DNA of 64,000 nucleotides from Nitrospirales bacterium (GTDB lineage: Bacteria; Nitrospirota; Nitrospiria; Nitrospirales; UBA8639), in contig OY729426.1 in NCBI GenBank assembly GCA_963422365.1, positions 416,001-480,000 of the forward strand, in the 5' to 3' direction. Below, piece after piece: positions 32,588 to 49,160 of the stretch (within the stretch, counting starts at the first letter, position 1; the number at the start of each line of letters is the position of its first letter). Position numbers and translations under genes: made by a program. The notes under the pieces were generated by a model. That model saw only the letters and a list, made by a program, of their open reading frames with translations, was not told where the DNA came from and ran no database searches.

Positions 32588-32612
32588 GACCTCTTGGGGA
32601 GCTTCGTGGCAT

Positions 32613-34622
32613 TCATGACACGAGCCAATAGAAAAGTCCTATGGCCACAACCAGCCAAAGCACCATGACCAAGACATGGTGTTGAAGGATTCGTGGTTCA
32701 ACTTTCTGCAACATATGACCTGTGGCATCAGCCTGATACCCCAATCGTTCGACAGGCTTCTCAGGCACACGGATATCAAAAACCTGCCACAGCCATCGGG
32801 CAAGGGCAACGGATCCTTCGGCAAGACTCATGATCACGCGATCAATTCCTCCAAGATCAATGGTTTTCCATAACCAGCCGGCTAATCGAAGCATAGGTTG
32901 AACCACATACACTTCATAGAGTTCGTCGACATACCACTTGTTGAGAAAAAGCACATACAGCGTTTTTCCCCACTCCGACTGTCCGAATGGGGACCGTCGA
33001 GGATTCCTATGCAGCCAGTAGGCGAATCCCGAACCACTCAATGCCACGACAAGCGGTAACACGATCCACAAAGAGCCCTCAGCCGTTGCAGGCAACTCGG
33101 CAAACAAGGGAACGGGCTGTGGCAGGGCAGGCGCTAAAAATTGAGCAAACCACGTCCAGAAGGCCACCAAAAGGCCAGCCATCACGGCTGCTCCGAATAC
33201 GACCCCGATCAGGTGAGGTGGTGAAAACAACCAAGGGCGAGCGATAAAAGAGCCAGCCTTCCCCTGGATTCCTACGGCAAGACTCTGTTGAAAAAGCGAG
33301 ATGATTCCTCGAAAGAGAGACATGCCCGTACAAAAAACCGTGGTTAAGCCAATCACCCAAAAGGCGACTTTCGCGGAGGCAAAATTCTGGACCGTCCACA
33401 AATATTCATAGGGTCCTGAAAAAATCACAAACGGAGGGATACAGGCTAGCATCAATGCTCCAAAGCACAAGACCCCCGTCGGTCGTAAAGCATGTCGGGA
33501 ATCAGGGTGTGCATGGCCATGGGCTTGGACGGATTGCAGGGCGTTGCCGGTCGATAAGAATAAAAACCCTTTCAAAAAGCCATGGGCCAACAAATGGAAA
33601 ATCGCGACGACGAACGCACCAACGCCACACGTCATGATCATGAATCCGATTTGGCTGATCGTCGAATAGGCCAAAAGCTTTTTAATGTCGGACTGGGTCA
33701 GAGAGACCAGGCCAGCGAACAGTGCGGTGGTCGCCCCAATGATCGCAATCACCGTCATCGCGACGGGAGAAAGCACAAACAACGGGCTCAATCGCACCAA
33801 CAGGAACGGACCGGCGTTTACCATGGTCGCAGCGTGAATCAACGCCGACACCGGAGTCGGGGCTTCCATCGCAACGGGTAGCCACACGTGGAGCGGGACC
33901 TGGGCAGACTTCCCTAAGGCCCCCATAAACAACAAGAGCGTAATGAGTGTCACGGTCTGAACCGGCAGATCGAATCCTGCCCACCCCAGCAGGTTCATGG
34001 TGTGCCCGCTCATGCTCTCGGCCTGAGCGAGAATCTGCTGGATATCGAGGGTCCCAAATGCGGCAAACGTGAGGATGACCCCGAACCCCAGTCCCATGTC
34101 CCCCACCGCATTCACCAAGAATGCTTTGGTTGCCGCTCGGCATGCGGACGGTCGCTCCGCCGAGTGGGAAATCAAGAGATACGAACAGAACCCCATGACT
34201 TCCCAAACAATGTACACGAGAAGCAGGTTGCTACTCATGACCAGCATGATCATGGAAAAGGTAAAGAGCGCAATAATGGCGAAGAAGCGACTATACCGTG
34301 AATCACCGATCATGTAGCGGGAAGCATAGATATGCACGACGCAGCTCACCCCTGTGACCAGCAACAACAGCAACACGGTCAGTTGGTCGATATATAGACC
34401 GAGGTCAACGATGAGATTGCCGGACTGCATAAGTCGATACAAAGGAATAGTAATCGGGCCATTGCTCAAGACTTCGACGAACGCGCCTATCGATAGACCA
34501 AAGGAGAGGCCTAACGCAGGAATAGCGACTTTGTGGCTTTTTTCTCCCAACAAGCGTCCCCCCAACGCGAGAGTCAGAAATGCCGTCAAGGGAAGAAGCG
34601 GGATCAGGACATACGCTGACAT
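32613..34622 (-). CDS. NuoL/DabB(MpsA)-like antiporter subunit with extended C-terminal helix
   Basis: 'KSAQVPLHVWLPVAMEAPTPVSALIHAATMVNAGPFLLVRLSPL', 'AYSTISQIG' and 'HGFLKGFLFL'. Confidence 0.88.
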   Translation of the reverse strand: MSAYVLIPLLPLTAFLTLALGGRLLGEKSHKVAIPALGLSFGLSIGAFVEVLSNGPITIPLYRLMQSGNLIVDLGLYIDQLTVLLLLLVTGVSCVVHIYASRYMIGDSRYSRFFAIIALFTFSMIMLVMSSNLLLVYIVWEVMGFCSYLLISHSAERPSACRAATKAFLVNAVGDMGLGFGVILTFAAFGTLDIQQILAQAESMSGHTMNLLGWAGFDLPVQTVTLITLLLFMGALGKSAQVPLHVWLPVAMEAPTPVSALIHAATMVNAGPFLLVRLSPLFVLSPVAMTVIAIIGATTALFAGLVSLTQSDIKKLLAYSTISQIGFMIMTCGVGAFVVAIFHLLAHGFLKGFLFLSTGNALQSVQAHGHAHPDSRHALRPTGVLCFGALMLACIPPFVIFSGPYEYLWTVQNFASAKVAFWVIGLTTVFCTGMSLFRGIISLFQQSLAVGIQGKAGSFIARPWLFSPPHLIGVVFGAAVMAGLLVAFWTWFAQFLAPALPQPVPLFAELPATAEGSLWIVLPLVVALSGSGFAYWLHRNPRRSPFGQSEWGKTLYVLFLNKWYVDELYEVYVVQPMLRLAGWLWKTIDLGGIDRVIMSLAEGSVALARWLWQVFDIRVPEKPVERLGYQADATGHMLQKVEPRILQHHVLVMVLWLVVAIGLFYWLVS

Positions 34623-34650
34623 AGGCTAGTCCAAAATGAACGATGACACA

Positions 34651-36120
34651 TTACAGCCCCGTGGGCAGAGCAGTCGTGAGCAAAAATCCGACAATCGGAT
34701 CGCTGCACAACCCCAAAATAATAATCGCAGCAGACGCGCCTCCCACACTCACCTTTAACGATAAGGGCACATCGACCGGACTCACCACAGGGGATAATTG
34801 ATTGTCCCGGAAAATACGTTCAAAGAGCTTAATAAAATAGGCCAACGTGAGAAGGGTTGAGACGAGCACGGCCCCGACCGCGAAATAATTCTGAACCTCA
34901 ATAGCGCCAAGGATGATGTACCATTTACCGAAAAATCCACCCGTTGGAGGAAATCCGACCATGGACATCGCCATAATGATGAGCGCACCGGTGATCCATG
35001 GGGCTTGCCCACGCAAACGGTTTAAACCATCGATTGTCCGGACGCCATACTGATAGATGATGGCACCAGCCAAGAAAAACAGGGCCGCTTGCATGACCGC
35101 ATCATTGATCAAATAAAACACGCCTCCTGCAAAACCGGTCGGACTTCCCAGGCCCACCCCGATGAGAATCAACCCAATATGAGAAATCCCGCCATAGGCG
35201 AACATTCGTTTGATTTCATGTTGAGCCAACGCGAGAAATGCCCCGATGACTGCTGCGATGGCCCCCAACTCTTCCAGGAGGACCAGGATAGAAATATGCT
35301 CAATTTCCGCCTGAGGCCCGACCACCCAAAACATGATTCGGACCCAGACGACTAACGCCGCTTTGGTGACCAAAGAAGCGAGGAAAGGTGAAATGGCCTC
35401 CGGTGCATGGGTATAGGCATCAGGCAACCATCCGTGAAGGGGCATGAGGGCCATCTTAATCCCAAGACCGAGAAACATGAAAATCAACCCTCCGACAATG
35501 GCTTTGGAAGTTAATAATTCAGGCACTCGTTGGGCCAAGTCGGCCATGTTCAGCGTTCCAGTCGCTGCATAAAAATATCCAACACCCAATAAATACAAGG
35601 AAGCCCCGAGTGCTCCCAAAATCAGATAACGAAAGGCCGAGATGAGAGCCTTACCACCTGCAACGCCTACCAGGGCATACCCTGATAACGCGGCAACTTC
35701 CAGGAACACGAACACGTTAAATAAATCCGCTGCAAAGATAATGCCCGTGATTGCCGAAAGCAGCAAAAGGATCAACGTATAGTACGGGACGACTCTCCGA
35801 CCCAGCGATTGGGGTGAGAGCGGTCCCTCGTTGATAAGGCAAAGCAATGCCAACAGGCTGAAGGTCACCATGACAACACTTGCCAACCCATCATCGACCC
35901 ATTCAATGCCAATCGGGGCTGCCCACCCGCTAAAGGCGTAGCGAATCTCTCCATCATTCAGGACGACCACGAGATTGGCAAGGGCAAGCGGACTCATGGC
36001 GGAAACGGCCACGAACGCCATGGGGCGACACCACTCACGATGTTTCAATCCGACAATGGGCAAAGAGAGCGCCGTCAAGAAGGGGAGCAGGAAGAGAAGT
36101 GCCGGCAAGTGATGATTCAT
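34651..36120 (-). CDS. mrpD: MrpD-like multisubunit cation/H+ antiporter subunit
   Basis: 'GWAAPIGIE', 'DLFNVFVFLE', 'TGTLNMADL', 'KMALMPLHGWLPDAY' and 'PPTGGFFGKW'. Confidence 0.88.
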   Translation of the reverse strand: MNHHLPALLFLLPFLTALSLPIVGLKHREWCRPMAFVAVSAMSPLALANLVVVLNDGEIRYAFSGWAAPIGIEWVDDGLASVVMVTFSLLALLCLINEGPLSPQSLGRRVVPYYTLILLLLSAITGIIFAADLFNVFVFLEVAALSGYALVGVAGGKALISAFRYLILGALGASLYLLGVGYFYAATGTLNMADLAQRVPELLTSKAIVGGLIFMFLGLGIKMALMPLHGWLPDAYTHAPEAISPFLASLVTKAALVVWVRIMFWVVGPQAEIEHISILVLLEELGAIAAVIGAFLALAQHEIKRMFAYGGISHIGLILIGVGLGSPTGFAGGVFYLINDAVMQAALFFLAGAIIYQYGVRTIDGLNRLRGQAPWITGALIIMAMSMVGFPPTGGFFGKWYIILGAIEVQNYFAVGAVLVSTLLTLAYFIKLFERIFRDNQLSPVVSPVDVPLSLKVSVGGASAAIIILGLCSDPIVGFLLTTALPTGL

Positions 36121-36494
36121 TCCAACCTCTTTAAAATTTCATCTTCATCCAAGCTGCCATATTTCCGATAAATTCCTGCAACCAAGGCTAAAGAGACACC
36201 CAAGGTCGCGACCTGGACCACGATCGCCGTGAGCGTCAACACGTGGGGTAATGGATTGGGATAGATGGGAACCTGGGCTGAGTCTGTTTCAGACAAGAGG
36301 ATAGGAACCGTTGCGCCTGTTTTCACGCTTATCGCCACGATAAAGAAAATCACGCTGGTTTGCACGATATACAGACCAATGAGCTTTTTAACAAGGTTAT
36401 GGTGGGTCACCATGATGTAAAATCCCCCAAGAAACAGGATGACGAAGGCGATAAAATTTGGCCTGTGAAGCCACGCCTCAATGAGTTCAAGCAT
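36117..36494 (-). CDS. mrpC: MrpC/MnhC subunit
   Basis: 'NLVKKLIGL' and 'NPLPHVLTLTAIVV'. Confidence 0.9.
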   Translation of the reverse strand: MLELIEAWLHRPNFIAFVILFLGGFYIMVTHHNLVKKLIGLYIVQTSVIFFIVAISVKTGATVPILLSETDSAQVPIYPNPLPHVLTLTAIVVQVATLGVSLALVAGIYRKYGSLDEDEILKRLE

Positions 36495-36936
36495 GGGAGT
36501 CCTCGTCTTCGTCATCGAACGACAGACTAAACACGATAGAGATCGCCGTCACAGCGACATCGACCGCCACACCGATTTGTGTCAGCAGGATCCCCAAATA
36601 ACGGCGTGAAGCGACTTCGAGTCCGGGGGTCTCGATGGCAGCGTAATTCAAAAATTCTCCTCCCCCGATCAGACACAATCCTCCGGCACCGGCAAAAATT
36701 AGTAACCCCAGCCCATCCCCATGCAGCATCTTCCTCGCCACATTGCTGGAAGAAGCGCTGGCCCCAAAAATGAGAATTGAGAAAATCATACTCGTGCCAA
36801 AAACAACCCCACCCACAAATCCTCCACCCGGGCCATACTGTCCAAAGAACAACACATACAGGCCAAAGAGTTGGGCCAAGGGAATCAGGACTCGTCCTAA
36901 CGTGAGAACGATGACGCTATCGTGTGCTTGGATCAT
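36487..36936 (-). CDS. mrpB: MrpB/MnhB-domain subunit
   Basis: 'GQYGPGGGFVGG' and 'GGEFLNY'. Confidence 0.85.
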   Translation of the reverse strand: MIQAHDSVIVLTLGRVLIPLAQLFGLYVLFFGQYGPGGGFVGGVVFGTSMIFSILIFGASASSSNVARKMLHGDGLGLLIFAGAGGLCLIGGGEFLNYAAIETPGLEVASRRYLGILLTQIGVAVDVAVTAISIVFSLSFDDEDEDSHA

Positions 36937-37463
36937 TCCCTGCGCCTCCTGAGCAACAAGGCGCAGGCAAGCCCGGATGTGAAGATCACGACCGTTTCAA
37001 TCAAAGTATCGAGAGAACGATAATCCATGAGCACCGACGTGACGACATTGGGCGTATGGGTGTCCTGCAGACTGTTCTCCAGGTAGACAGGAGCAACGTG
37101 AATGCTCGCGGGAGAAGCAGGATCTCCAAATCGAGGAAGATCACTGGCTGCATACAACAGGAGTAACCCCAGCAGAGGTAAGCCGATCAAAGCGGCCCAG
37201 GGAAGGGACGGACGATGCATACGAATATCCTTTTGAGCCGTTCCAAACAGCGTCAAGAGAAAAAACACCGTGGCCAAGCCGGCGCCCACAACCGCTTCGA
37301 CAAACGCCACATCGACGGCACCAAGCCAGGCCCACACCACCGCTAAAAAGAACCCGTAGGCACCTAAAATAAGCACTGCCGACAGCAAGTCTTTGACCAG
37401 AATGGCCCCGGCCGCTGTCAGAATCAGGAGAATCAGGAGAGGAATTTCAAATGAAAACGTCAC
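36933..37463 (-). CDS. DUF4040 + MrpB N-terminal (MrpA C-terminal-like / MbhD-E-like) subunit
   Basis: 'AVDVAFVEAVVGAG' and 'PNVVTSVLMDYRSLDTLIETVV'. The GTG start overlaps the mrpG stop. Confidence 0.85.
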   Translation of the reverse strand: MTFSFEIPLLILLILTAAGAILVKDLLSAVLILGAYGFFLAVVWAWLGAVDVAFVEAVVGAGLATVFFLLTLFGTAQKDIRMHRPSLPWAALIGLPLLGLLLLYAASDLPRFGDPASPASIHVAPVYLENSLQDTHTPNVVTSVLMDYRSLDTLIETVVIFTSGLACALLLRRRRE

Positions 37464-37759
37464 TGTTGTTCTCGTACCCACGGTTTGAGGCCCGAGCGAA
37501 AAGCCGCTCGAATGGTGGCGTGTGCAATGACAGGATTGATCAGATAGATCAGCGCGAGCACCACCAGAATTTTAAGCAAATTCATGCTGAATCCTTGATA
37601 GACGGCCAACCCTGCCAATATCAGAAACGCCCCCAAGGAATCCGTCAGTGAGAGCGCGTGGGAGCGGGCAAACACATCCGGCAAGCGCACCATGCCAATT
37701 GCCGCAACGACCAGAAAAAACAAACCAACAAGAATGAGCACAATGGCAATCACAGACAT
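37460..37759 (-). CDS. mrpG: MrpG/MnhG subunit
   Basis: 'GMVRLPDVFARSHA..DSLG' and 'NPVIAHA'. Confidence 0.9.
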   Translation of the reverse strand: MSVIAIVLILVGLFFLVVAAIGMVRLPDVFARSHALSLTDSLGAFLILAGLAVYQGFSMNLLKILVVLALIYLINPVIAHATIRAAFRSGLKPWVREQQ

Positions 37760-38026
37760 TTACACATTTCCTCGCTGTTCAAGAAACTTGGCAATGGCCA
37801 AGGCCCCAACCAAATTCAACAGGGCATACCCCGTGGAGATATCCACGAACATGTCGACTCGTTCGTAGACGGTCCCGATCAGCACCAGCAAAATAATGGC
37901 TTTCGTCGAAATCCCATTCAGACCCAACACGCGGTCAAAGACCGTAGGCCCTCGGACCACACGATATAAATACACCAGAATGAGGACAGCGAGCACGATC
38001 AACACGCACAGAAAAAAGAATTTCAT
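37760..38026 (-). CDS. mrpF: MrpF/MnhF subunit
   Basis: 'RVVRGPTVFDRVLG' and 'DISTGYALLN'. Confidence 0.9.
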   Translation of the reverse strand: MKFFFLCVLIVLAVLILVYLYRVVRGPTVFDRVLGLNGISTKAIILLVLIGTVYERVDMFVDISTGYALLNLVGALAIAKFLEQRGNV

Positions 38027-38037
38027 TCTGAACTCGT

Positions 38038-38493
38038 TTATTCCTGGAACACCTGGCCAATTTTTTCTTCAAGGCGTTGTGTGGTCAGATCGTGGCCCGA
38101 TTCATCGTCTATGGCATGGACGATGAGTTCCTGGGCATTGACTTCGGCCGTGATCGTGCCTGGAGTCAGCGTGATGGAATTTCCAAGTAGGACCACGGCT
38201 TCCTGTCGCAGCAACTTCGTTTGATAATGAATGAGCTTCGGCGCAATCGGAAGAGAAGGATGAAGAATGAGCGTAGTCAGATGAAGGCTACTTTGCACAA
38301 TGCGCCCAAATAGCCAAGGCAGATACCCCAGAATTCGCCACACAAGTATTTTTCGAAAAAGAGAATCTGAGTGGCCCGAATTCAACCATGCCACGCCAAA
38401 AGATACTATCAGCCCTAGACCCATATGGAACGGGTTATACTTTACCGATAAAATGAGCCAAATAATAAAAAACGCGACTGTTTTAAGAAACAC
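38038..38493 (-). CDS. mrpE: MrpE/MnhE subunit
   Basis: 'LGNSITLTPGTIT' and 'LIVHAID'. Confidence 0.92.
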   Translation of the reverse strand: MFLKTVAFFIIWLILSVKYNPFHMGLGLIVSFGVAWLNSGHSDSLFRKILVWRILGYLPWLFGRIVQSSLHLTTLILHPSLPIAPKLIHYQTKLLRQEAVVLLGNSITLTPGTITAEVNAQELIVHAIDDESGHDLTTQRLEEKIGQVFQE

Positions 38494-38609
38494 GGCGTTA
38501 GAGAAGAATCTCCATCTCCTTCATTATCAATCGTTCATTGTTTTCGAAAACCGGCATTCTTCTTGAAACCCGGTGCTGTTTTTTCATTGACGCACATGCC
38601 TTCGTTCAC

Positions 38610-38713
38610 AAAAAAAGCCAACCGGATGCCTCGAATGAATCATTCGAAAAGCCTCTGGTTGGCTTGTACTGTGCCTGCCCGTTCACTTGCTAGGCAGTCA
38701 CCCTACCGGCCAA
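38610..38713 (-). ncRNA. Conserved leader RNA, copy A (antiterminator-like hairpin overlapping an intrinsic terminator), upstream of mrpE
   Basis: RNA: UUGGCCG-GUAGGGUGACUG-CCUAGCAAGUGAACGGG-CAGGCACAGUACAAGCCAACC...GGUUGGCUUUUUUU. Matches copies B and C. Confidence 0.8.
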
Positions 38714-38775
38714 GAGTATCGTCAATCGGTTCGCCAAGGATCCTCACCACGATCGCCTCCCGATCCCTGGGAACT

Positions 38776-38804
38776 CTTATACCAATATTGGGCTCATGAC
38801 ACAA
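38776..38804 (-). promoter_or_regulatory. Sigma70-type promoter for the mrp operon: TTGTGT-N17-(TGg)TATAAG
   Basis: -35 at 38799-38804 and extended -10 at 38776-38781, with a 17-bp spacer. Confidence 0.55.
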
Positions 38805-38928
38805 CAGCGTTGCTTGATACGGAAAAAAATTTCAAACAAGGAGGGAGGAGGAACGATCGTTGCTCCGCCTCCAGCGAGTCAAAACAATGACGGAAGCTTT
38901 CCGAAACCGGACTTGCGTTCTGCGTCTG

Positions 38929-40464
38929 TTATTTGCCACTGAGCGATAGAAAGAGCATCGAGCGTCCTCGTCTCAGGAGAACCAGGACCGAATCACTCTC
39001 ATCGAGTCGACCGGTGACGCGATCAAAGTCTTCCACATCCTTAATGGTGATTCGGTTGATTTCCAGGAAGATATCATCCTTTCGTATGCCGGCCCGTGCG
39101 GCACGACTGTCGGGATGAACCTTCAAGACGCGCACCCCCTTCTCATCAGAGGGGGACTCGGAAGCAACCGATTCGACCGTCAACCCCGACAGGACATGAC
39201 GGGCGCCTACCGTCCCCACCTCGCCGCTTCGCCCGGCCAAATGCTTGGGCATCTGTCCAATGACGACGGTGAGGCGCTCGTGGTTGCCTTCACGAAGAAT
39301 CCCCACGTCCACCTTGGTCTCCGGAGGAGTCTCGGCAACATAGGTGCGTAATTTAGTCGAATTTTCGACCGGACGTCCAGCATATTCACGAATGATGTCT
39401 CCCCGTTGAAACCGGCCCCCCTGTGCCGGGCTTCCCTCAATCACGTCGGTGACCAAGGCGCCTTTCGTCTCAGTTGTCTCAAATCGTTTCGCAAGATCAG
39501 GAGACAGGTCTTGGATGGAAACCCCGAGCCATCCTCGTACCACTTTCCCATACGCTTTCAAACTTTGCGCCACACCCTTGGCCATATTGCTCGGGATGGC
39601 AAAACCGATTCCCATATACCCACCGCTTCGGCTGAAGATTGCCGTGTTGATCCCGATGAGTTCCCCTTGCAAATTCACCAGAGCCCCGCCGGAGTTCCCC
39701 GGATTGATGGCCGCATCGGTTTGGATAAAATCCTCGTAATCGACAATGCCGACATTGGCCCGTCCCACGGCACTGATAATGCCCATGGTCACGGTCTGGC
39801 TCAGGCCAAAAGGATTCCCCACTGCCACGACCATTTCTCCAACTTGTAACGTGTTTGAATCACCCCAGGAGAGAAACGGCAAATCCGATGCTGCAATTTT
39901 TAAAATGGCCAGATCGGTTTTGGGATCAGTGCCGATCAATTGTGCGTCAAACTTTCTTTGATCCCCCACCACCACCTGAATTTCATCGCTCTCGGCCACC
40001 ACGTGATGGTTTGTGACAATATATCCGTCAGAATTGACAATGACCCCTGACCCCATGCCCTGTTGTTGGCGTTTGGGCGCCTGTCGGCGTTCTTCTTTGA
40101 ACCTGTCTCCGAAAAATCTCCGAAAGAATGGGTCGTCAAAGAATGGGGAATGGGGAAAAGGAGAACCTGGCGGAGCCGTCGTCTTCACGATGGAAATATT
40201 GACCACCGCAGGCTTGATCTTTTTCGCAATCGCGATGAGATGCTGATTGAAACGGAGAATATCGTCGCTCGTGGAGGGAAGAGAAAAACCGGCTTGTTGA
40301 ATCAGGGGCGTTTGAACGGTATGCTCTTCGGAAGCCTGAATGACCGTGGAGGGCTGGAAGAATGTCGCCCTCGCGCCTAAGACCCCACACACGCAGAGAA
40401 AAATCCCGATCCCCAGAACGACGGGGTTTTTCGTGACATTGATGAGTGACCATCGAACTCGCAT
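38929..40464 (-). CDS. DegP/DegQ (HtrA, Do-family) periplasmic serine protease with 2 PDZ domains
   Basis: 'GSGVIV', 'TNHHVV', 'DLAILK', 'IQTDAAINPGNSGG' and 'RGWLGV'. Confidence 0.95.
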   Translation of the reverse strand: MRVRWSLINVTKNPVVLGIGIFLCVCGVLGARATFFQPSTVIQASEEHTVQTPLIQQAGFSLPSTSDDILRFNQHLIAIAKKIKPAVVNISIVKTTAPPGSPFPHSPFFDDPFFRRFFGDRFKEERRQAPKRQQQGMGSGVIVNSDGYIVTNHHVVAESDEIQVVVGDQRKFDAQLIGTDPKTDLAILKIAASDLPFLSWGDSNTLQVGEMVVAVGNPFGLSQTVTMGIISAVGRANVGIVDYEDFIQTDAAINPGNSGGALVNLQGELIGINTAIFSRSGGYMGIGFAIPSNMAKGVAQSLKAYGKVVRGWLGVSIQDLSPDLAKRFETTETKGALVTDVIEGSPAQGGRFQRGDIIREYAGRPVENSTKLRTYVAETPPETKVDVGILREGNHERLTVVIGQMPKHLAGRSGEVGTVGARHVLSGLTVESVASESPSDEKGVRVLKVHPDSRAARAGIRKDDIFLEINRITIKDVEDFDRVTGRLDESDSVLVLLRRGRSMLFLSLSGK

Positions 40465-40508
40465 CGTACCTTCCTTATCTGAAAATCCTCACAACGACCA
40501 GCAATGAA

Positions 40509-40517
40509 ATTATACCA
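40509..40517 (-). promoter_or_regulatory. Extended -10 promoter element TGgTATAAT upstream of the degP-like gene
   Basis: The minus strand reads ttaTGgTATAATttc about 45 nt before the ATG. Confidence 0.5.
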
Positions 40518-40653
40518 TAATCTTCCGCGTTGCACGTACTCGCTCTTCCGTCGCCGGCACGCTTGCCGCATAACAACGTTCAACGAGGCCTAGACGGCGT
40601 TCGCCTCTTGCCTTACACAGCCCGATGACCGTGACAATGGAGAAACACGTCCC

Positions 40654-43600
40654 TCATCCAATGGGTTCCCATGTGGCATCGGGATGATAGCGATGAAACA
40701 CAAAGGTATGTGGATCGAGGGCCAAGAGATTGAGCCATTGGTTCTGGAAGAGTTGCTGCAGGATCGCATGCTTCTGAATGATGGACGCGATTCGACTCGG
40801 CGGCGCTTCAATAATACCCAGAAGCCGCATCGGTTCGTGATAATGGACGTCACCGTCGTTGACCGTCTGTAAGGGAAATCCTATCTGCAAATCACTCTGG
40901 CTTCCCAACATCACCCCCACGCCCGACACGACGTTGTGGATCACCTTACTCCCACTTCCATAGTGCCACGGATCAACGGCGGAAAAGTAATATCCGGTGT
41001 TAATCCACTCTCCGACGATCAATGGGGCCGTCATGATTTTTTCGAGATTGTTTCCCTCCGCGTCGGCAAGCGGATCATAGGAATGTAAGAAGACGCGACC
41101 GCCTAAATTCAGGCCTTTGGTCAGGCTTCGACGCCCGATTAAAAAAGCCGCATTGCCGGCCAGCCCCCATTCCGGTCGAGGATTGGCCCAATCGCGGCTG
41201 CGTTCCTCGACGTGAGCCAACGCCTGTTGAGGAGAAATCCCGGTCGGCGCGCTTGGAATGCGATGACATCGTTCCAATGCTTGGGTCATGCCCGCTTGTT
41301 CCAAATCCCGGCTCAACACCTGTACATCCTCCGTATGACTCTCGGGCAAGTCTTGCAGATCATAAAACGTGACCCGATCAGTGGTGGTATTGTGCTTGGC
41401 CGGCAGAAACCAGGTATCCTCAGGAATGGGCAATCCCTTTTCGTTGAGGATGCGCCGAACCTCCGGTTCGTTGGCCATGGCCGCAAACACGCGTGCGTTG
41501 GCGTCCCCGGGGTTGCCTCCGCAGGCCCCGCAATCCAATGCCGCGAAATATGGATTGTTGTCCGTCTGACTTCCATGCCCACAGAGCACGACTAGCCGAC
41601 CGTAGTTCCGGGTCAACCCCATGACCCGAAGCCCATTCTCGATGAAGGTGGCCCGCTCGGTAAGGGAGAACCCTTGTGCGAGCCCAGCGGAATCCCTTCG
41701 GGCTTCATCTCTCCCCATTGGGGATTGCCTGGATCGGACGGTGAAGACACCGAGATCTGTGTCGGAACCGGACGGGGAACCCCTCCTTGAAGTTTTGATT
41801 GAATCGCATGGAACGCTTTGGGAATCAGCGTTTTGCCGATTAACCCGAGACTAAAGAAAAACCCCAGCACGTCAATCAGCATCATCGACCCGACGGGATT
41901 ATGTTTTAGATCGTGAAAGAGATGACGACCCAGTTGCTGCCATTGCGCCCCGGTCGAATATTGCTGCAAGGCGCGTTCTTCGCCGAGTCGAGGAATTTCC
42001 GTTACCGCATGGTTGGGAGAAAGTAACACCGGGCATAAGGCAGACCGTTCCTCGCTATCAAAGGCTTGATGACTGATAGGAATACCGAAAAACCCGGCGA
42101 ACCCAAGCGTTTCATACGGACCCTGCGCCTCGACGTGTCGACGGAACGATTCCGATCGGACATCAATGCAGCACACGAGTTGTGCGCGCGGGCGAGTGCC
42201 GAGTGGCGGCACCGTTCCGCGATGGGCCGAAAGTTTTTGGATGATCTCGCCTAGAAAGGCATCTTCATACGCTTCAAGCCACACCGGGCCGTGCCGATCC
42301 AGGGGAAAGACATCCAGCCATCCTAATACCATTCGCGCCTCAGCCACGGAAAGATCGGTCATCTCGAGAGGTGACAGCTCCAAAATTTGAGCAAGGTGAA
42401 ACAGCCGCCAGGCATCACGGCAGATCGCCTGTTCCGCGGCATCGACCGCATGCGTGCCTTCCCCCATTCGGTTCTTGTATTCATCCGGACGATCCTGCCA
42501 GTAGGCGATCAGCGCCGAAACGTTTCCGTCAATCCCCCATTCTCGCTGACAGGCCACATGCGTCAATTCGGATTCATAAAACACACGCACCGCCAGATAC
42601 TGAACGGCATCAACAGGGTGTTTTTGTTGCGCGTGATACGCGGGATTCGTCTCAAGCCAACGAACGTATCGCGTCCAACCCGGCAATTGGGATAACTGCC
42701 GTGAGAGGTAATCGCTCCAGAGCTCCTGTGGAATGCCCAGACGATGCAGACTCGACACAATCGCATCCTCAGGCTCAGGCGGAAGATTGTTGACTTTCTC
42801 CCGTAAATCTCGAATGCCCAAAAAGCGGCTGGACCGATCGCGTTGCGCAAGCTCTCGCCAAGCCGCATAGAATCCCCCGTGCCTGCAGGGCATTTCCCAT
42901 CCGGCTAATCCTTCATCGACAAACGCCGCAAACCATTTGATGAGTTGGTTATTGATCTGTTCGACCAAGTCCGTTCCAGCCAAGACATCCACCCAATCGC
43001 TGGTGGTTTGCTGAGACGGCAAGGCAATGTCGATGGAAGCGCGTGGCCCCTCTGACACGTTTAGGCTTGCATGCCCGGCGGCGTGGTCGCCGGACAGAGC
43101 ATCGGACAGCCCTAATGCCGACAATATGGCTTGCCACAGCTTCGCAAGATACGCCTCCTCGGGATGATCCCGACATTGCTCACACTCTCGGAGCATTCGC
43201 TCGATGATGCGTTGTCTGGATTCGTCTGAAAGGTCGTGGCGAAATCGTTTCGTGGCTCCATCACCGCCGAGTTCCCATTGCAGCAGGGCGGGCTCCAACG
43301 CCTCAAATCCAAACACCACATGCCCATGCCACACCTCATCGACCGTGATCCGACGACTCCCGACCGTAATCGCCTGTTGTGTGTCCTGTCGAGGGCCCAT
43401 TCGCGCTAAGGCCCGGTTGAGACTGTCGCGGGTGATGCGTCCCGCTCGATAAAACCGACGATACTCTTCATTAGGCAAGTACCCATTTCCACCAAGAAGC
43501 TGTTTGCCTTTTTGAACGGCCTGATCAAAGGGAAGATATTCGAATCCGTGCAAGGGATTTTGGGCAACCATGACTTGCATGGGCCAAAAGGGTGGAATCG

Positions 43601-43679
43601 GTTCGCTAGCCTGGGCAACCGTCTGGCGGAGCAGATCGCGTTCTTCTTGGGAAATCGCATGCATCGACGTGGTGCTCAT
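40654..43679 (-). CDS. dabA: DabA / MpsB (DUF2309, UPF0753) beta-carbonic-anhydrase-like inorganic carbon transporter subunit; 1-nt frameshift near 41684
   Basis: 'PPFWP..VAQNPLHGFE', 'LPGW', Zn ligands 'CIDVRSE', 'GHGS' and 'DCGAC', plus 'RPEWGLA' and 'HEPMRL'. The two ORFs join if one G is added (CTG GG[G] CTC GCA CAA). Confidence 0.9.
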
Positions 43680-43702
43680 AACATTGCTTGTGCCTTGCTA
43701 GG

Positions 43703-43800
43703 AAAAAACCAACCGTTTTCGTTCCATCCATCTCAGAAAAACACGGTTGGCTCGTCCTGTCACTGAACGCTTTGTCGGGAAGCCCAGCCACCACACAGCC
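43703..43800 (-). ncRNA. Conserved leader RNA, copy B, upstream of dabA
   Basis: RNA: GGCU-GUGUGGUGGCUG-GGCUUCCCGACAAAGCGUU-CAGUGACAGGACGAGCCAACCGU...ACGGUUGGUUUUUU. Ends 24 nt before the ATG. Confidence 0.75.
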
Positions 43801-43884
43801 TTCGTTCGTAGGTCAGACTCAATCCGGGACCACCTGCCTGCTTTCATGTGCATACCTGCCTCAGGGAAGCAGGGGGGGCTCTCC

Positions 43885-43914
43885 TTGACCTCTACAAAGT
43901 CATGGCTTATACCA
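43885..43914. promoter_or_regulatory. Overlapping divergent promoter candidates for dabA (minus strand, TGgTATAAG) and DUF2294 (plus strand, TTGACC-N17-TATACC)
   Basis: Sequence ttgacctctacaaagtcatggcttatacca. Confidence 0.4.
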
Positions 43915-43992
43915 TTGTTATATCAGGGACTGCAGACGGGCTCAAGAGATTTCTGGTCAGCCAAAAGCTCTTCCAACCCTGTGACCCCCCCT

Positions 43993-44364
43993 ATGAAAAA
44001 TGGATCGACCAAAGGCGAAGTTGAGACAGCCATCCGCAATGCCGTCATCAAATTCGAACAAGAATTTATGGGGCGCGGGCCGACCGAGGTCAAGGCGTTC
44101 ATCCTTCATGACATAGTCTTGGTACGGCTCAAGGGCGTCTTGACTCCAGCCGAGCGTCAACTCGCGAAAAATACTGAGGGGGTTGATATGGTCAAACGCA
44201 TGCGGCAGAACCTGATCTCACAAGGACGGGAAAGACTCTGTAGCCAAATTGCAGCCATTACCGGGACAGAAGTCACAGGCCTGTTCACCGATATCGAAAC
44301 GCACATCGGTGAGCGGATGATTGTCTTTACTCTTGAAAATGACCTCGACAATACCTCTCGCTAG
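43993..44364 (+). CDS. DUF2294 / MpsC-family protein
   Basis: 'TKGEVE..I..FEQEFMGRGP..VKAFIL.DIVLVRLKGVLTPAERQL...VKRMR'. Divergent from dabA. Confidence 0.88.
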   Translation: MKNGSTKGEVETAIRNAVIKFEQEFMGRGPTEVKAFILHDIVLVRLKGVLTPAERQLAKNTEGVDMVKRMRQNLISQGRERLCSQIAAITGTEVTGLFTDIETHIGERMIVFTLENDLDNTSR

Positions 44365-44551
44365 CCCACCACAGTCTTCACAAACATTTCCACGTTCTAT
44401 TGGCAGAAAAATCCAAAAAGGACTTCTAGCCCTCGGATAGAGGATTGAGGAAAAATTTGGACATGGAACGATACGAAAAGGGTTACGAGAGAATGTTCCC
44501 GGCGGGAAAGGGCCTAAGGATGCCTTCGGCTTTCGGAGAAAAACGAATAGC

Positions 44552-44707
44552 TTAGAAAATCTTGGCTATCAACGCACGAAATGGGTTGACAGCCGCTTCA
44601 GATTTCGCACCACTCTTAGCTTGGGAAGAAGAAACATTTTTTTCGTCTTTCTTCGGTGCTTTTTGATCACAGTGAAGACTTCTGTACAAGATACGAAATT
44701 CACTCAT
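44552..44707 (-). CDS. Small hypothetical protein (51 aa)
   Basis: SD ggaggggg precedes ATG 44707. A sigma54 promoter lies directly upstream. Confidence 0.55.
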   Translation of the reverse strand: MSEFRILYRSLHCDQKAPKKDEKNVSSSQAKSGAKSEAAVNPFRALIAKIF

Positions 44708-44753
44708 GATATCCCCCCTCCAAAGGTTTGAACAAGAACTGTTTCTGGTATGA

Positions 44754-44770
44754 AGCAAAGGAGGTGCCAA
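44754..44770 (-). promoter_or_regulatory. Sigma54 (-24/-12) promoter TTGGCACCTCCTTTGCT
   Basis: GG-N10-GC with a near-consensus TGGCAC..TTGCT. An AT-rich, IHF-like tract lies upstream (about 44800-44830). Confidence 0.7.
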
Positions 44771-45025
44771 GTTTCACAAAGGAACATCTTCAAATAAAAC
44801 TCTAAAAAAACAATTTGTTATGAATATAAAACGCTAGATCGTCCAACAATGATGAGGGAATAAGCAAAAACGCACATGCTCGGATGAGCGAAATCGCACC
44901 AAAATACTGGGAGCAACATGGCTATCATGGGCTATTAGGGCGATGGGTCTGGAAGGAAATGGGAGGAGAACGCACGCAATCCGTTACGTGCAGCTTGTCG
45001 CTCTTCAAAAAAGAATGAAGCCCCT

Positions 45026-46675
45026 CTAGCCCTTAGGCTTTACGTGAGCAGCCACGATGGAGTCAGCCATCGGGCGGTGCTGGGCCAACCCCCGAATGAA
45101 CAACTCACAACCCTTTTCTTCGAATTCGTTGGTCCATTCATAAAGTTTTGACATCACGGTGTGATCGACAAGTCGCGTCTCGGCCAGATTCAGGGTAACT
45201 GTTTTCCCTTCCTCGAGAAAGCGATGAAGATGCTTGCGCAAGGGAATCCACGTACTGAAGACGGCGGACTCTCGCACCACAATGATCGCTGAGTGATCAT
45301 CTTCATGCGTGACCTCAGCATGTAATTTGAAAAACGAGGGAATCGGTGCGCCATTCATGATGTGAATGGCGACCTTGACTCCTATTCCAATGCCGATTCC
45401 CAACAGGAGATCTGTCGCAAGCACGCCCACGATCGTGGACACAAACACAATGAACTGGTCTTTTCCCAAATGATACATATGGAGAAACTCTTGTGGAGAC
45501 GCCAACCGAAACCCCGTAAAGACCAACAACGCGCCTAAGGCCGCCAGAGGGATCTGGTTGATAATCCCTGGAATCACGGCGACGAATGCCAGCAGACACA
45601 GCCCATGAAACATGTTGGCAAATCGCGTCCTCGCCCCATTATCGATGTTCGCTTTGCTTCGAACGATCTCCGAAATCATCGGCAACCCGCCCACCAAGGC
45701 CGCCAGCGTATTGCCGAGGCCCACGGCAAGCATGTCTCGATCCAAATTCGTCTTTCGCTGCCAGGGGTCGATCTGATCGATGGCCTTCGCACTGAGTAAC
45801 GACTCAAGGCTCCCAATTAAGGCAAACATGATCACGTACTTGATTCCGATCGAAGTGGTTAACCCTGAGAAATCCGGGAACGTGAGGGCATTGAACATGT
45901 TCTTCGGAACATCCACCAAAAACTTTGTTCCTACAGCAGCCGTCTGCTCATGAACGGTGTAGGTGGCTTCTTGGCTGATATTCAAATACAGCCCCATGGG
46001 AACCGCGACGAACAACACAAGCATCGGCGCTGGAATCACTTTCCATTTGGGGTGTTTGATCAGCGTAGACCCAACCATAATGAGGAGACTCACGATCCCG
46101 ATCAAGCCAATTTTGGGATTCATCTCCATGACAAAATTCGGGATACCGGCCAACAACTCTAATGGGGTGCCTTCTGGGCTCAGCCCCATGACCACCGGAA
46201 ACTGTTTGGCGATGATGATGACCCCGATGGCTGACAATAATCCATGAATCGCCGTTGTCGGGAAAAATTCCCCAAGAATCCCGGCACGGAAGACCCCGAA
46301 CAAAATTTGAATGAGGCCTGCGGCCACCCCGACTCCAAGCGCTAACCGATAGGCTTGAAAGTCGGCAGCAGGATCCTTCCCGCCGGTAAACCCGAATTCA
46401 GTCACACACCCGATGGCGATCACGATGAGTCCAGCAGCCGGGCCTTTGATCGTGAGTTCTGAATTACTAAAGAACGTGGCCATGATGCCGCCGATAATGG
46501 CGGTAAAGATGCCGGCAATGGCAGGATACCCACACGCCAAGGCAATGCCGAGGCACAGTGGAAGCGCAATCAGAAAAACAAGAAATCCGGAAAGAAGGTC
46601 TGCCCTCCAGTTTTGCTGAAGTCCGGCAAGTGTTCCTCTCGGTATCTCTGCTCCATCAGTGTTCATGCTCGTCAC
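45026..46675 (-). CDS. SulP/SLC26-family anion (probable bicarbonate) transporter with a short STAS-like domain
   Basis: 'DLLSGFLVFLIALPLCLGIALACG', 'IKGPAAGL', 'ESLLSAKAID' and 'GGLPMISEIVRSKANI'. Confidence 0.92.
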   Translation of the reverse strand: MTSMNTDGAEIPRGTLAGLQQNWRADLLSGFLVFLIALPLCLGIALACGYPAIAGIFTAIIGGIMATFFSNSELTIKGPAAGLIVIAIGCVTEFGFTGGKDPAADFQAYRLALGVGVAAGLIQILFGVFRAGILGEFFPTTAIHGLLSAIGVIIIAKQFPVVMGLSPEGTPLELLAGIPNFVMEMNPKIGLIGIVSLLIMVGSTLIKHPKWKVIPAPMLVLFVAVPMGLYLNISQEATYTVHEQTAAVGTKFLVDVPKNMFNALTFPDFSGLTTSIGIKYVIMFALIGSLESLLSAKAIDQIDPWQRKTNLDRDMLAVGLGNTLAALVGGLPMISEIVRSKANIDNGARTRFANMFHGLCLLAFVAVIPGIINQIPLAALGALLVFTGFRLASPQEFLHMYHLGKDQFIVFVSTIVGVLATDLLLGIGIGIGVKVAIHIMNGAPIPSFFKLHAEVTHEDDHSAIIVVRESAVFSTWIPLRKHLHRFLEEGKTVTLNLAETRLVDHTVMSKLYEWTNEFEEKGCELFIRGLAQHRPMADSIVAAHVKPKG

Positions 46676-46698
46676 CCCATTTATCCTGTACGCGGCAG

Positions 46699-46799
46699 AA
46701 AAAAAGCCGGTTGCTCTTCAGGGATCATGTTCCCGAATGCTCAACCGGCTTGTACTGTCGCTGGCCTCAGACAGCCGATAACCAGCTACCCTACACACC
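46699..46799 (-). ncRNA. Conserved leader RNA, copy C, upstream of sulP
   Basis: RNA: GGUGU-GUAGGGUAGCUG-GUUAUCGGCUGUCUGAGGC-CAGCGACAGUACAAGCCGGUUG...CAACCGGCUUUUUUU. Ends 24 nt before the start. Confidence 0.8.
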
Positions 46800-46865
46800 T
46801 GCCTATTCAAAGTGAGCCATCAAACAACAAAAGTCTCACCATTTCGTTTTGTTCGATTTTGAAGA

Positions 46866-46894
46866 ATTTTATCTCGATGGCCTCTCGGGAGCAA
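46866..46894 (-). promoter_or_regulatory. Sigma70-type promoter for sulP: TTGCTC-N17-TAAAAT
   Basis: -35 at 46889-46894 and -10 at 46866-46871. Confidence 0.6.
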
Positions 46895-46935
46895 CCGTTT
46901 TTCTTTCCGCTAAAGAATTCCTCGCATGCCCAACA

Positions 46936-48372
46936 TTAAAATTGATTCGAGTTCATCCACAGATGAACGAGGATACTCGCCGCATAACCAAGCGCAATGA
47001 CCGGGGTCCATTTGAGGTGACCAAAGAACGTATACTTGCCTCGTGCCTGCCCCATCAACGCCACCCCGGCGGCTGACCCAATCGATAGCATGCTCCCCCC
47101 AACCCCGGCCGTTAAGGTCACCAACAGCCACTGCCCCTGAGACATCTCGGGATTCATCGTCAACACGGCAAACATCACCGGAATGTTATCGACGATGGCG
47201 GACAAGATCCCGACCATCGTATTCGCAAACGTGGGCCCCCATCCGACATACATCACCTGAGCCACCACCGCGAGGTAGCCGAGAAAACCCAACCCTCCCA
47301 CACACAGGACGACTCCATAGAAAAACAGCAAGGTATCCCATTCTGCACGGGCAACTTTTTGAAAGATATCGAACGGAACCACATCGCCATGAACTCCCCG
47401 AGCGTTCTTCTCACTCGAGGGTCCCAGCTCCACATATGTATTGTGCGTCTTTTTCAGGTAATATCCCCAAAATCCCAGGTAGGCCAAGCCGGTCATCATG
47501 CCCACCATGGGTGGGAGGTGAAGGAAGTTATGAAAACTCACGGCGGTACAAATGGTGAAAAAGAATAAGAGCATAATCACCTGTGCCCCCCGCTTCATGA
47601 CCACCACTTCGTCTGACGGCGCCGGTGACACCTGAGGAACGGCGAAGTGCATCAACCCGGCCGGCACGATGAAGTTGACTGCCGAGGGAACAAACAAGAG
47701 GAAAAACGTGAAAAAATCCACAATCCCTTTTTGCCACACCATCAACGTCGTGATGTCGCCAAAGGGACTGAACGCCCCACCCGCGTTGGCCGCCACGACA
47801 ATATTGACACACGCCAAACTGACGAACCGAGGATTATCTGCCCCAACCGCAAGCACCACGGCGCACATCAGCAAGGCCGTCGTCAGATTGTCCGCCACCG
47901 GCGAAATAAAGAACGCCAAGATTCCCGTGAGCCAAAACAGTTGACGATAGGTCAACCCCCTGCGCACCAACCACGATCGCAGACTTTCGAAGACCAGCCG
48001 TTCTTCCAGAGCATTGATGTACGTCATGGCGACAAGCAGAAATAACATCAATTCTGCGTATTCGAGAATATTGTGACGGAGCGCTTGCGCAACGACATGA
48101 GGATCATTGCCGGGATACGCCCAAGCCACCAACGCCCAAATGATTCCCGCAGCCAACATGACGGGTTTTGATTTTCTGAGGTGTGTAAACTCCTCGGCCA
48201 TGACCAACGCATAGGCCAGCACAAAAATACCCAGCGCGAAATACCCAATGGGTGAATGGGTCAGATCAAGCTGGGCAACTGGACCCTCCGCACCCCAACT
48301 GAGTTCAGGAAAGCCGAGCAGCAGCGCGACGCTGCTGAAGGAGAAAACGGTTATTGAGGGGTGATTCATCAT
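46936..48372 (-). CDS. nhaD: NhaD-family Na+/H+ antiporter
   Basis: 'EEFTHLRKSKP', 'FFISPVADNLTTAL', 'NAGGAFSPFGDITTLMVW', 'SAIVDNIP' and 'GGSMLSIGSAAGV'. Start set at ATG 48372. Confidence 0.92.
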   Translation of the reverse strand: MMNHPSITVFSFSSVALLLGFPELSWGAEGPVAQLDLTHSPIGYFALGIFVLAYALVMAEEFTHLRKSKPVMLAAGIIWALVAWAYPGNDPHVVAQALRHNILEYAELMLFLLVAMTYINALEERLVFESLRSWLVRRGLTYRQLFWLTGILAFFISPVADNLTTALLMCAVVLAVGADNPRFVSLACVNIVVAANAGGAFSPFGDITTLMVWQKGIVDFFTFFLLFVPSAVNFIVPAGLMHFAVPQVSPAPSDEVVVMKRGAQVIMLLFFFTICTAVSFHNFLHLPPMVGMMTGLAYLGFWGYYLKKTHNTYVELGPSSEKNARGVHGDVVPFDIFQKVARAEWDTLLFFYGVVLCVGGLGFLGYLAVVAQVMYVGWGPTFANTMVGILSAIVDNIPVMFAVLTMNPEMSQGQWLLVTLTAGVGGSMLSIGSAAGVALMGQARGKYTFFGHLKWTPVIALGYAASILVHLWMNSNQF

Positions 48373-48575
48373 GACGAGTTTGCCGTCAGCCAATTTTTGG
48401 GAAACATAGCAAAGACGGAAATCCTTTCTCAATAACTTTGGAATAGATAGACTATCTCGGAAATCGGCAGAAACAGACTTGACGAGAATCGTCAAACCCC
48501 AGGAGAGCACACGCAAAAACTTTCCCATCCCGTCGCACGGCAGGACGTTCAAAAGCGAACTGCTGAAACAGCTTG

Positions 48576-49160
48576 TTAATTCAAGGGCACTTCGATGACG
48601 AGCCCCCCCATCACATCATTAAGTTTGAAATCACGCTTTGGAGACTCGGTGTGCGCATTATGACAAGATACGCAGGCTCGACTCACGGCCCGGTCCGGAT
48701 AGATCGCCTGAAAATAGCGTTTGTGATTCAGCGTCATTTCGCCTTCCATCACCTCGCCGAATTTGACGACTTGTTCCACCATCTGCCGTTCCTGATCGGA
48801 AACGGGAGCATTTCGGGAATTGAGAGGCCAGAGACTGACTAACCGATAGCGAAACGGAGCATCTCGCAAACGAAGACTTCGAGATGCTTCGCGTAAAAAT
48901 TGGGCGGGCAAAGGCAAGGTTTTATCATTCACCCAATCTTCGGAAGCATTCACAATAAGCATGGCTTCCATACGCGCGACAACGTGCTGCGTATAAAAAG
49001 TTCGATCGGCCTCAATCACCCCGTGGAGGTAATCAGCAACGGTTCTTGCAGGAATACCCTGGACGGGAAGTCTTTGAGTACTGATGATCCATCCCAACAC
49101 AATTCCCAGCAAAAGGATCACCCCGCACAAACCGACTGTTCGTAGATTCAGGTCTTTCAT
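48576..49160 (-). CDS. DUF3365 (Tll0287-like) heme c-binding periplasmic protein
   Basis: N-terminal TM, 'LPLPAQF', 'YRLVSLWPLN..NAP', CVSCH and 'GDV/DVMGG'. Confidence 0.85.
   Translation of the reverse strand: MKDLNLRTVGLCGVILLLGIVLGWIISTQRLPVQGIPARTVADYLHGVIEADRTFYTQHVVARMEAMLIVNASEDWVNDKTLPLPAQFLREASRSLRLRDAPFRYRLVSLWPLNSRNAPVSDQERQMVEQVVKFGEVMEGEMTLNHKRYFQAIYPDRAVSRACVSCHNAHTESPKRDFKLNDVMGGLVIEVPLN

Follow-up and report, generated by a model that had tools for sequence, protein, structure and literature searches.

Here, we describe a leader RNA that occurs three times in a 64,000-nt stretch of DNA (the window) from a Nitrospirales bacterium (contig OY729426.1 of assembly GCA_963422365.1). 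All three copies lie on the minus strand, at 38610-38713, 43703-43800 and 46699-46799, where an earlier note on this DNA had placed them, and they precede, as that note also had it, the first genes of their units: an MnhE-family gene (copy 1), dabA (copy 2) and a SulP-family gene (copy 3). The RNA is almost certainly a real terminator-switch that has so far escaped cataloguing. Its presence tracks a neighbouring gene for the DUF2294 protein MpsC (YbcI; 43993-44364, plus strand), and not dabA. From sequence comparison we propose, with a probability of roughly 0.7, that this RNA is one half of an undescribed protein-dependent antitermination system, and that MpsC is the protein, acting as antiterminator. 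The proposal draws on direct observations of sequence, covariation, terminator overlap, gene context, co-occurrence and co-loss. What is new is most likely a variant form of protein-mediated antitermination, with DUF2294/MpsC as the candidate protein.

Each copy forms one rod, made of a basal GG(Y)/(G)CC helix, an internal loop with AA on its 3′ side, a GUR/YAC stem, a GG/AG loop, an imperfect stem and a free apical part. The general plan is that of a hairpin of ~50 nt: above the basal GG/CC lie a purine-rich loop that ends in ARG, the 3-bp RYH/DRY stem, another purine-rich loop and an upper stem that varies. The AAGCC at the 3′ end of the hairpin doubles as the start of an intrinsic terminator, which ends in U7, U6 and U7 in copies 1, 2 and 3, in line with the hairpin and U6-7 noted before. 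When each copy is folded without the right arm of the terminator, the 5′ GG(Y) closes on GCC; when the terminator is present, GCC pairs downstream instead. Computed energies for the terminator versus the alternative state are -41.4 versus -36.5, -33.3 versus -28.2 and -43.2 versus -38.3 kcal/mol, favouring the terminator by ~5 kcal/mol in every copy. Mutual exclusion of upstream hairpin and terminator, which the earlier note had claimed, thus applies to the basal helix, which is exchanged with the terminator, but not to the upper hairpin, which can coexist with it.

The stem seen to covary among the three copies does so across the Nitrospirales, where 14 of 15 pairs carry compensatory changes on both sides. 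In the underlying alignment (106 rows, 104 of them distinct, fitted to the model, with one basal pair misregistered and contributing 55 unpaired cells), 87.5% of cells are paired, compared with 79.3% after shuffling and at most 44.7% when slid. The terminator overlaps the RNA in 100 of 110 distinct Nitrospirales copies, by exactly 5 nt in 93 of these, and the four terminator pairs that follow GCC are still paired in 141 of 154 copies even as their sequence changes. Terminator overlap and covariation well beyond the source genome support the ON-type attenuator layout that had been recognised in the three copies. Could the structure be a plain terminator with a duplicated neighbouring hairpin, a repeat or an insulating terminator that switches nothing? 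Copy 3 lies ~140 nt behind nhaD, and many distant copies sit just behind mpsC, where a terminator would be expected. We nevertheless regard this explanation as highly improbable, given that copy 2 stands between divergent genes and has nothing to terminate but its own leader, that the upstream hairpin covaries and the overlap is fixed at 5 nt, and that the genome holds only 3 copies, all at one functional cluster.

In the mechanism that we propose, transcription of the hairpin would present its 3′ AAGCC with two fates, closing the hairpin or starting the terminator. Because the terminator is favoured by ~5 kcal/mol (computed) when unaided, it would win, and the default would be OFF. By analogy with LicT and its ribonucleic antiterminator (RAT) hairpin, binding of active MpsC to the looped lower stem would hold GCC paired upstream and allow read-through into sulP, dabA and the Mrp/NuoL/NuoM unit. 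The target genes make low CO2/bicarbonate, sensed by or through MpsC, the most likely input; given the rest of the mechanism, we would rate this input at a little better than an even chance. The model as a whole, with MpsC as an antiterminator that responds to low inorganic carbon, is offered tentatively, at somewhat less than even odds.

The element is rare in the source genome and widespread around MpsC relatives. The consensus with a 17-19 nt spacer in the earlier note matches only the three copies in 2.5 Mb, both strands searched, and a profile made from them finds no further match in that genome below E 1.8. The homologue search outside the genome that had been suggested did recover a family: model R1, built from 13 sequences, returned 89 matches at E<=1 across 80 loci that surround MpsC relatives, and a terminator follows nearly every one. 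Matches to model R2 occur in 27 of 151 genomes of the phylum, all of them in two families of the order, f1 and f2. (A partial match at L096:11385 was kept in alignment A5 and in R2, and left out of the copy and target counts.) The first genes behind 110 Nitrospirales copies are NuoL-like (38), dabA (25), sulP (23), mrpE (18), an LCIB-type carbonic anhydrase (1) and degP (1), with four unresolved. NuoL-like targets have dabA as the next gene in 12 of the 12 loci long enough to tell. The targets change, and mpsC may be divergent from the RNA, upstream of it or downstream. Many genus members (G010, G016, G017, G009, G019, G031) carry two dabA types, one often TGA-broken, and the RNA often persists before the broken copies.

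A related form of the RNA is found beside DUF2294 elsewhere. R2 missed the MpsC loci of more distant Nitrospirota. Inspection of these loci revealed hairpins of the same plan, GG-N-AG-RYH ... DRY-AR-GCC plus a terminator, and same-plan hairpins also stand beside DUF2294 in two Bacillota records, before sbtA in Anoxybacillus and before an MFS gene in Acetoanaerobium. From metagenomes, the best 80 of at least 585 DUF2294 loci were used (361 kb, without taxonomy). A structure-only scanner gave 42 matches in 34 of these loci, every one on the DUF2294 strand, and in 32 loci the matches lay at most 350 nt downstream of DUF2294; run over the 2.5 Mb source genome, the same scanner returned the three copies and four other sites. 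When 35 distant copies are aligned with plain MAFFT, the basal GG/CC proves invariant; the RYH/DRY stem is paired to 94%, and each of its 3 pairs has changed on both sides. Between lineages, sequence conservation is confined to the basal loops. Several loci carry tandem RNA pairs, each RNA with its own terminator, between DUF2294 and the target (L199:6329-6480, L204:9665-9813, L210, L219, L226 and L277), and in Anoxybacillus the DUF2294 gene itself has a long structured leader as well (L192:8740-8995).

Model R3, built from the metagenome loci only, allowed a held-out test on the 117 genomes of the phylum outside f1 and f2, 8 of them MpsC-positive and 109 MpsC-negative. R3 matched at E<0.002 in six of the 8 MpsC-positive genomes, and in a seventh with laxer filters; among the 109 MpsC-negative genomes there was no match at E<0.002 and one at E 0.049. 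The best match is not on the contig that carries mpsC; the gene behind it is ATP-citrate-lyase- or succinyl-CoA-ligase-like. In the 2.6 Mb Acetoanaerobium record R3 has a single match, just behind DUF2294. Three weak R3 matches (E 0.012-0.049, L292-L294), which precede genes without a family or an NTP transferase gene, were set aside, and pattern matches in viral contigs (1 and 4) were attributed to chance, the first lying inside a phage open reading frame and the others scoring ~17 bits with R2.

Within the genus, dabA is present in 38 of 38 genomes and MpsC in 21. All 21 MpsC-positive genomes have the RNA at 57 bits or more. The 17 MpsC-negative genomes have no RNA (11), only decayed copies below 30 bits (4) or intact copies (2). 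On a DabA tree the label switches 7 times, at least 5 of them on starred branches; this is a quick tree of 30 of the 38 genus genomes with two paralogue groups, and not a species tree. The two MpsC-negative genomes with intact RNA sit on very short branches of this tree, near-identical to an MpsC-positive genome, and in one of them the mpsC gene is absent from an otherwise similar locus. We attach no P value to the co-loss, since the training set of R2 consisted largely of MpsC loci and related genomes do not count as independent.

These distributions bear directly on the alternative that the RNA is a new ON riboswitch for a small molecule or for pH, and that MpsC is a co-regulated or co-transferred member of a module for dissolved inorganic carbon (DIC), not the operator of the switch. 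In favour of such a riboswitch, the core GUAGGGU...ACAGUACAAGCC shows strong conservation in Nitrospirales, some genomes have the RNA ahead of mpsC or of divergent MpsC paralogues, two MpsC-negative genomes have intact copies, and terminator-coupled Na+-sensing variants are known, according to the accessible text of PMC9646797. Yet conservation between lineages is limited to the basal loops, and mpsC often adjoins the RNA without being under it. A protein-independent switch would be expected in MpsC-negative genomes as well, but none of the 109 outside f1 and f2 has a match at E<0.002; in the genus the RNA is lost or decayed in 15 of 17 MpsC-negative genomes, all of which keep dabA. An ON response to bicarbonate would, moreover, have the wrong sign for uptake genes. 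We therefore consider a riboswitch unlikely. The earlier suggestion that one signal or protein co-regulates the three units is retained in its protein-bound form, for which sequence context points to DUF2294/MpsC, a protein that the earlier note had listed as a reagent only; the Na+/Li+ riboswitch option is not.

The targets also inform the choice of signal. For the most part they are DIC transporters, carbonic anhydrases and carboxylating enzymes. Behind the 35 metagenome copies, the first genes are phosphoenolpyruvate carboxykinase (PEPCK; 10), MpsC or a paralogue (7), ABC permeases (4, one by eye), NuoL-like (3), DUF4914 (3) and one each of SbtA, biotin carboxylase, isocitrate dehydrogenase (IDH), a DegT aminotransferase and a HAD hydrolase, with three unresolved. 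A further 18 copies precede MpsC or a paralogue (4), beta-carbonic anhydrase (3), NuoL or MrpD-like genes (3), ABC permeases (2) and, once each, IDH, SbtA, a citrate-lyase-like gene, an MFS gene, ExbB and a HAD-Sua5 fusion. PEPCK, carbonic anhydrase, IDH and biotin carboxylase are linked by CO2/HCO3- rather than by Na+, and supply or use of CO2/bicarbonate is the common thread of the targets. Since these genes would be needed at low DIC, an ON switch that binds bicarbonate would work in the wrong direction; a protein that is inactivated by CO2 or bicarbonate would fit them. DUF4914 is the first gene behind the RNA in L242, L252 and L267, where PEPCK stands in ten other loci, a hint that DUF4914 has a CO2-linked function.

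MpsC is an alpha/beta protein of 123 residues (model pLDDT 94), and a product of that length is on record. Among 104 homologues the conserved positions are G-R-G-P, R45, K68, R71, R79, E54 and D100, with R28, R45, K68, R71 and R79 kept in 88-99%. A sequence search of solved structures returned no relative of MpsC, and fold searches with two MpsC models gave no clear match, a result that shows neither a new fold nor absence. The best hits in structure comparison (VIA Z 6.6-7.0, root-mean-square deviation (rmsd) ~3, 84-95 residues aligned) are to unrelated proteins; the comparison with RbfA gave Z 5.8 (rmsd 3.8, 88 aligned). The ESM Atlas held no usable match to MpsC outside PF10057. It is conceivable, though we would put it below an even chance, that DUF2294/MpsC is a new RNA-binding antiterminator family that senses CO2/bicarbonate directly, for example through the near-invariant K68/R71/E54/D100, and that it governs a DIC regulon of DAB pumps, SbtA, SulP, carbonic anhydrases and carboxylating enzymes in several phyla. 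At L210:4236-4616, L213:6575-6955, L231:2111-2494, L255:834-1241 and L284:4600-4959, a divergent MpsC paralogue is found downstream of the RNA and is thus controlled by it; these paralogues are possible modulators. Two longer DUF2294 homologues, P0125 and P0128, carry a beta-carbonic anhydrase domain and may be frameshift fusions.

A number of observations weigh against MpsC as the antiterminator of this RNA. Two MpsC-negative genomes retain intact copies, and the terminator looks intact in 6 of 8 copies examined from MpsC-negative genomes, some of them ahead of sulP or mrpE genes that are intact too; a strictly required antiterminator predicts neither. Terminators had been expected to break once mpsC is lost, an expectation that mostly failed, with erosion in 2 of the 8 copies. 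Conversely, MpsC occurs without detected RNA in G138, G156, G179 (scanner match only) and G175 (where mpsC has stops), the scanner finds nothing in 46 of the 80 metagenome loci, and R3 has no copy in a DUF2294-bearing Staphylococcus plasmid record or in a viral-collection record. The Anoxybacillus copy was seen by script only. Members of one model are hardly picked up by the other, in the case of both R2 and R3 (best window score 15.5 bits), and the status of the two RNA forms as one family therefore rests on shared architecture. The training sets were drawn from MpsC neighbourhoods, and a single deletion can remove mpsC together with an adjacent RNA. With no solved relative by sequence, RNA binding by MpsC is argued from context and basic residues. 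For several targets a link to CO2 is not clear, namely ABC permeases of the TauC/SsuC-like kind (5 by Pfam, 1 by eye), DUF4914 (3), HAD hydrolases (2), a DegT aminotransferase, ExbB and an MFS transporter. In the accessible text of PMC6689103, deletion of mpsC in S. aureus leaves growth in air unaffected, mpsA is only 1.7-2.5-fold lower at 5% CO2, and MpsC is given no function. Expression evidence for the leaders amounts to a weak hint. One contig from run X1, whose status as RNA is a guess, covers 38764-38608 on the minus strand, starting ~5 nt behind the expected start site of the copy-1 leader, and passes into an A-rich tail at the copy-1 U-tract. All five tailed X1 contigs are oriented like minus-strand genes; the one at copy 1 is a single contig of depth 4, and similar tails are found inside genes. 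Gaps in X1 carry no weight as evidence, and the listing of sequencing runs showed no RNA run that contains this sequence.

Some of these points would suit a different role for MpsC, as a partner of the RNA that promotes termination or RNA cleavage, that acts via another protein, or that answers to a non-carbon signal such as pH, Na+ or general stress. Terminators are often intact after mpsC loss; NhaD, Mrp, SbtA and SulP point also to Na+ or pH; there are targets without a CO2 link; and the invariant E54 and D100 could be catalytic. On the other hand, the conserved features of the RNA are in the competing hairpin and not in the terminator, the sequence of which varies freely, and what PEPCK, carbonic anhydrase, IDH and biotin carboxylase have in common is CO2/HCO3-, not Na+. 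We judge such a role quite unlikely, and retain MpsC as the candidate antiterminator.

How does the proposed system compare with those already described? In the Rfam comparison that had been recommended for this element, which the earlier note could not assign to a known class, cmscan gave no relevant Rfam 15 match at E<=10 over 36000-49000 or with copy 3 alone. The scan, which included nhaA-II and sul1 (two families that were not run singly), had no match at the elements, and 17 distant loci gave no relevant Rfam 15 match at E<=1. For the Na+-I riboswitch (DUF1646, RF03071) the only match in the genome scores 12.9 bits, and for the Li+-I riboswitch (nhaA-I, RF03057) 19.9 bits; both lie elsewhere than the copies and neither reaches the gathering threshold. 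As far as the accessible texts of PMC9337991 and PMC9646797 go, Na+-I, Li+-I and the Na+-sensing nhaA-I variants resemble our RNA in being ~55 nt long, in ON logic, in ending in a terminator in some cases and in preceding cation transporter genes. They differ in structure, being described in these texts as two-stemmed (P1 and P2) and conserved in the loop of P2, whereas the copies here form one rod with a free loop.

The closest likeness is to the RAT hairpins of BglG, SacY and LicT, which in the accessible text of PMC5393181 have a variable apical part, two conserved internal loops, a 3′ end that overlaps an intrinsic terminator and a default OFF state. Our RNA shares with them a hairpin that contains two conserved internal loops and overlaps an intrinsic terminator. 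There are differences too: RAT hairpins are given there as 29-33 nt with a terminator overlap of 6-10 nt, in contrast to hairpins of 47-60 nt and an overlap of 5 nt in 93 of 100 here. The candidate protein is DUF2294, and the targets are DIC genes and not sugar genes of the phosphotransferase system. The CAT domain of BglG/LicT (PF03123) had no match in the source genome, which is 98.6% complete (the control was positive in 4 of 14). By analogy, then, the RNA may work like a LicT-family RAT hairpin, but it falls outside the RAT class on size, overlap and CAT domain. Genes for BglG/LicT-type regulators are often adjacent to the RAT target.

ANTAR proteins, too, exert protein-dependent antitermination of the kind proposed here, and the source genome has one ANTAR gene. 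Their target RNAs are twin hairpins with six-base loops. As a partner for our RNA, ANTAR was rejected: it is present in 38 of 38 genus genomes versus intact RNA in 23 of 38, and so does not track it. HutP, GlpP and PyrR-type regulators are small ligand-controlled proteins encoded next to a terminator under their control. They differ from the present case in RNA architecture and targets, and MpsC has no sequence relative among solved structures. In S. aureus mpsABC (PMC6689103, accessible text), MpsC stands beside the DabAB/MpsAB bicarbonate transporter, as here, and mpsA is lower at high CO2; that text describes no leader RNA, and R3 finds no copy in the mps locus of the Staphylococcus plasmid. 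In this plasmid an mpsAB-mpsC unit lies between IS6 elements, and a terminator-like hairpin without an R3 match stands just before the mpsA start (L194:2170-2504).

A literature search found neither this RNA nor a regulatory role of MpsC described, with the limit that supplements of PMC5737381 and PMC11109978 could hold the motif under another name. A term search of the motif-discovery papers PMC11109978, PMC8632094 and PMC6429828 (main texts, and supplements of the last two) turned up no DUF2294, bicarbonate or carbonic anhydrase motif. The proposal bears on how bacteria other than cyanobacteria sense CO2/bicarbonate and switch on their DAB/MpsAB pumps. MpsC has been without a function since its deletion gave no phenotype, and would now become a named protein with a 50-nt target and a predicted regulon. 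If correct, the proposal would add a new family of RNA-binding proteins and a new antitermination signal. It would also give hints to what SulP, Mrp-like arms, DUF4914 and ABC permeases do where the system controls them, and a small switch that responds to CO2 would become available for engineering. What the present window contributes is the three-target Nitrospirales form and, in relatives, repeated co-loss of protein and RNA.

In the source genome, the minus-strand order is nhaD, copy 3, sulP, (mpsC on the plus strand), copy 2, dabA, degP, copy 1, Mrp-like arm, NuoL-like and NuoM-like genes. Copy 3 consists of the hairpin at 46799-46747, the overlapping terminator and U7, and precedes the SulP-family anion transporter (45026-46675; PF00916 and NCBIfam, below the BicA cut-off). 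Copy 2, with its hairpin at 43800-43749, its terminator and U6, is divergent from mpsC, the sole PF10057 gene of the genome, and precedes dabA (40654-43679; PF10070). Copy 1, with its hairpin at 38711-38661, its terminator and U7, precedes mrpE at the head of the unit at 31058-38493, which comprises an Mrp-like arm (MnhE, G, MbhD/E, MnhB, C and D-type) and NuoL-like and NuoM-like genes. R2 scores copies 3, 2 and 1 at 57.4, 43.4 and 58.9 bits, all three being training sequences. Two minus-strand genes complete the context: one for an NhaD Na+/H+ antiporter (46936-48552; NF038006), directly upstream of copy 3, and one for a DegP/HtrA-type protease (38929-40464), between dabA and copy 1.

The sigma70 promoters that had been predicted upstream of the copies are weaker than was stated. 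A sigma-70 consensus scan placed none of its 6 sites in the region (5.7 expected) ahead of a copy, although -10-like elements do lie upstream of all three: an extended -10-like TGGTATAAG 61 nt upstream of copy 1 (38776-38784, minus strand), which the consensus scan missed, the same TGGTATAAG 102 nt upstream of copy 2 (43906-43914, minus strand), with a similar element in relatives, and a weak -10-like GATAAAAT 63 nt upstream of copy 3 (46866-46873, minus strand). Promoters before copies 1 and 2 are thus only suggested by TGGTATAAG, and by a weaker element before copy 3.

The dabA gene is split into two frames in the assembly and is intact in read assemblies. At 41688 one extra base is present in three DNA runs from two studies (the source sample may be among these runs), so the split is an assembly error. 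There is no dabB adjacent to dabA. The Mrp-like, NuoL-like and NuoM-like unit at 31058-38493 has the same leader RNA as dabA, and may be the membrane partner of DabA in this genome. Finally, in Bacillus badius a distant DUF2294 gene stands directly before fdhD (L325:4962-6131).

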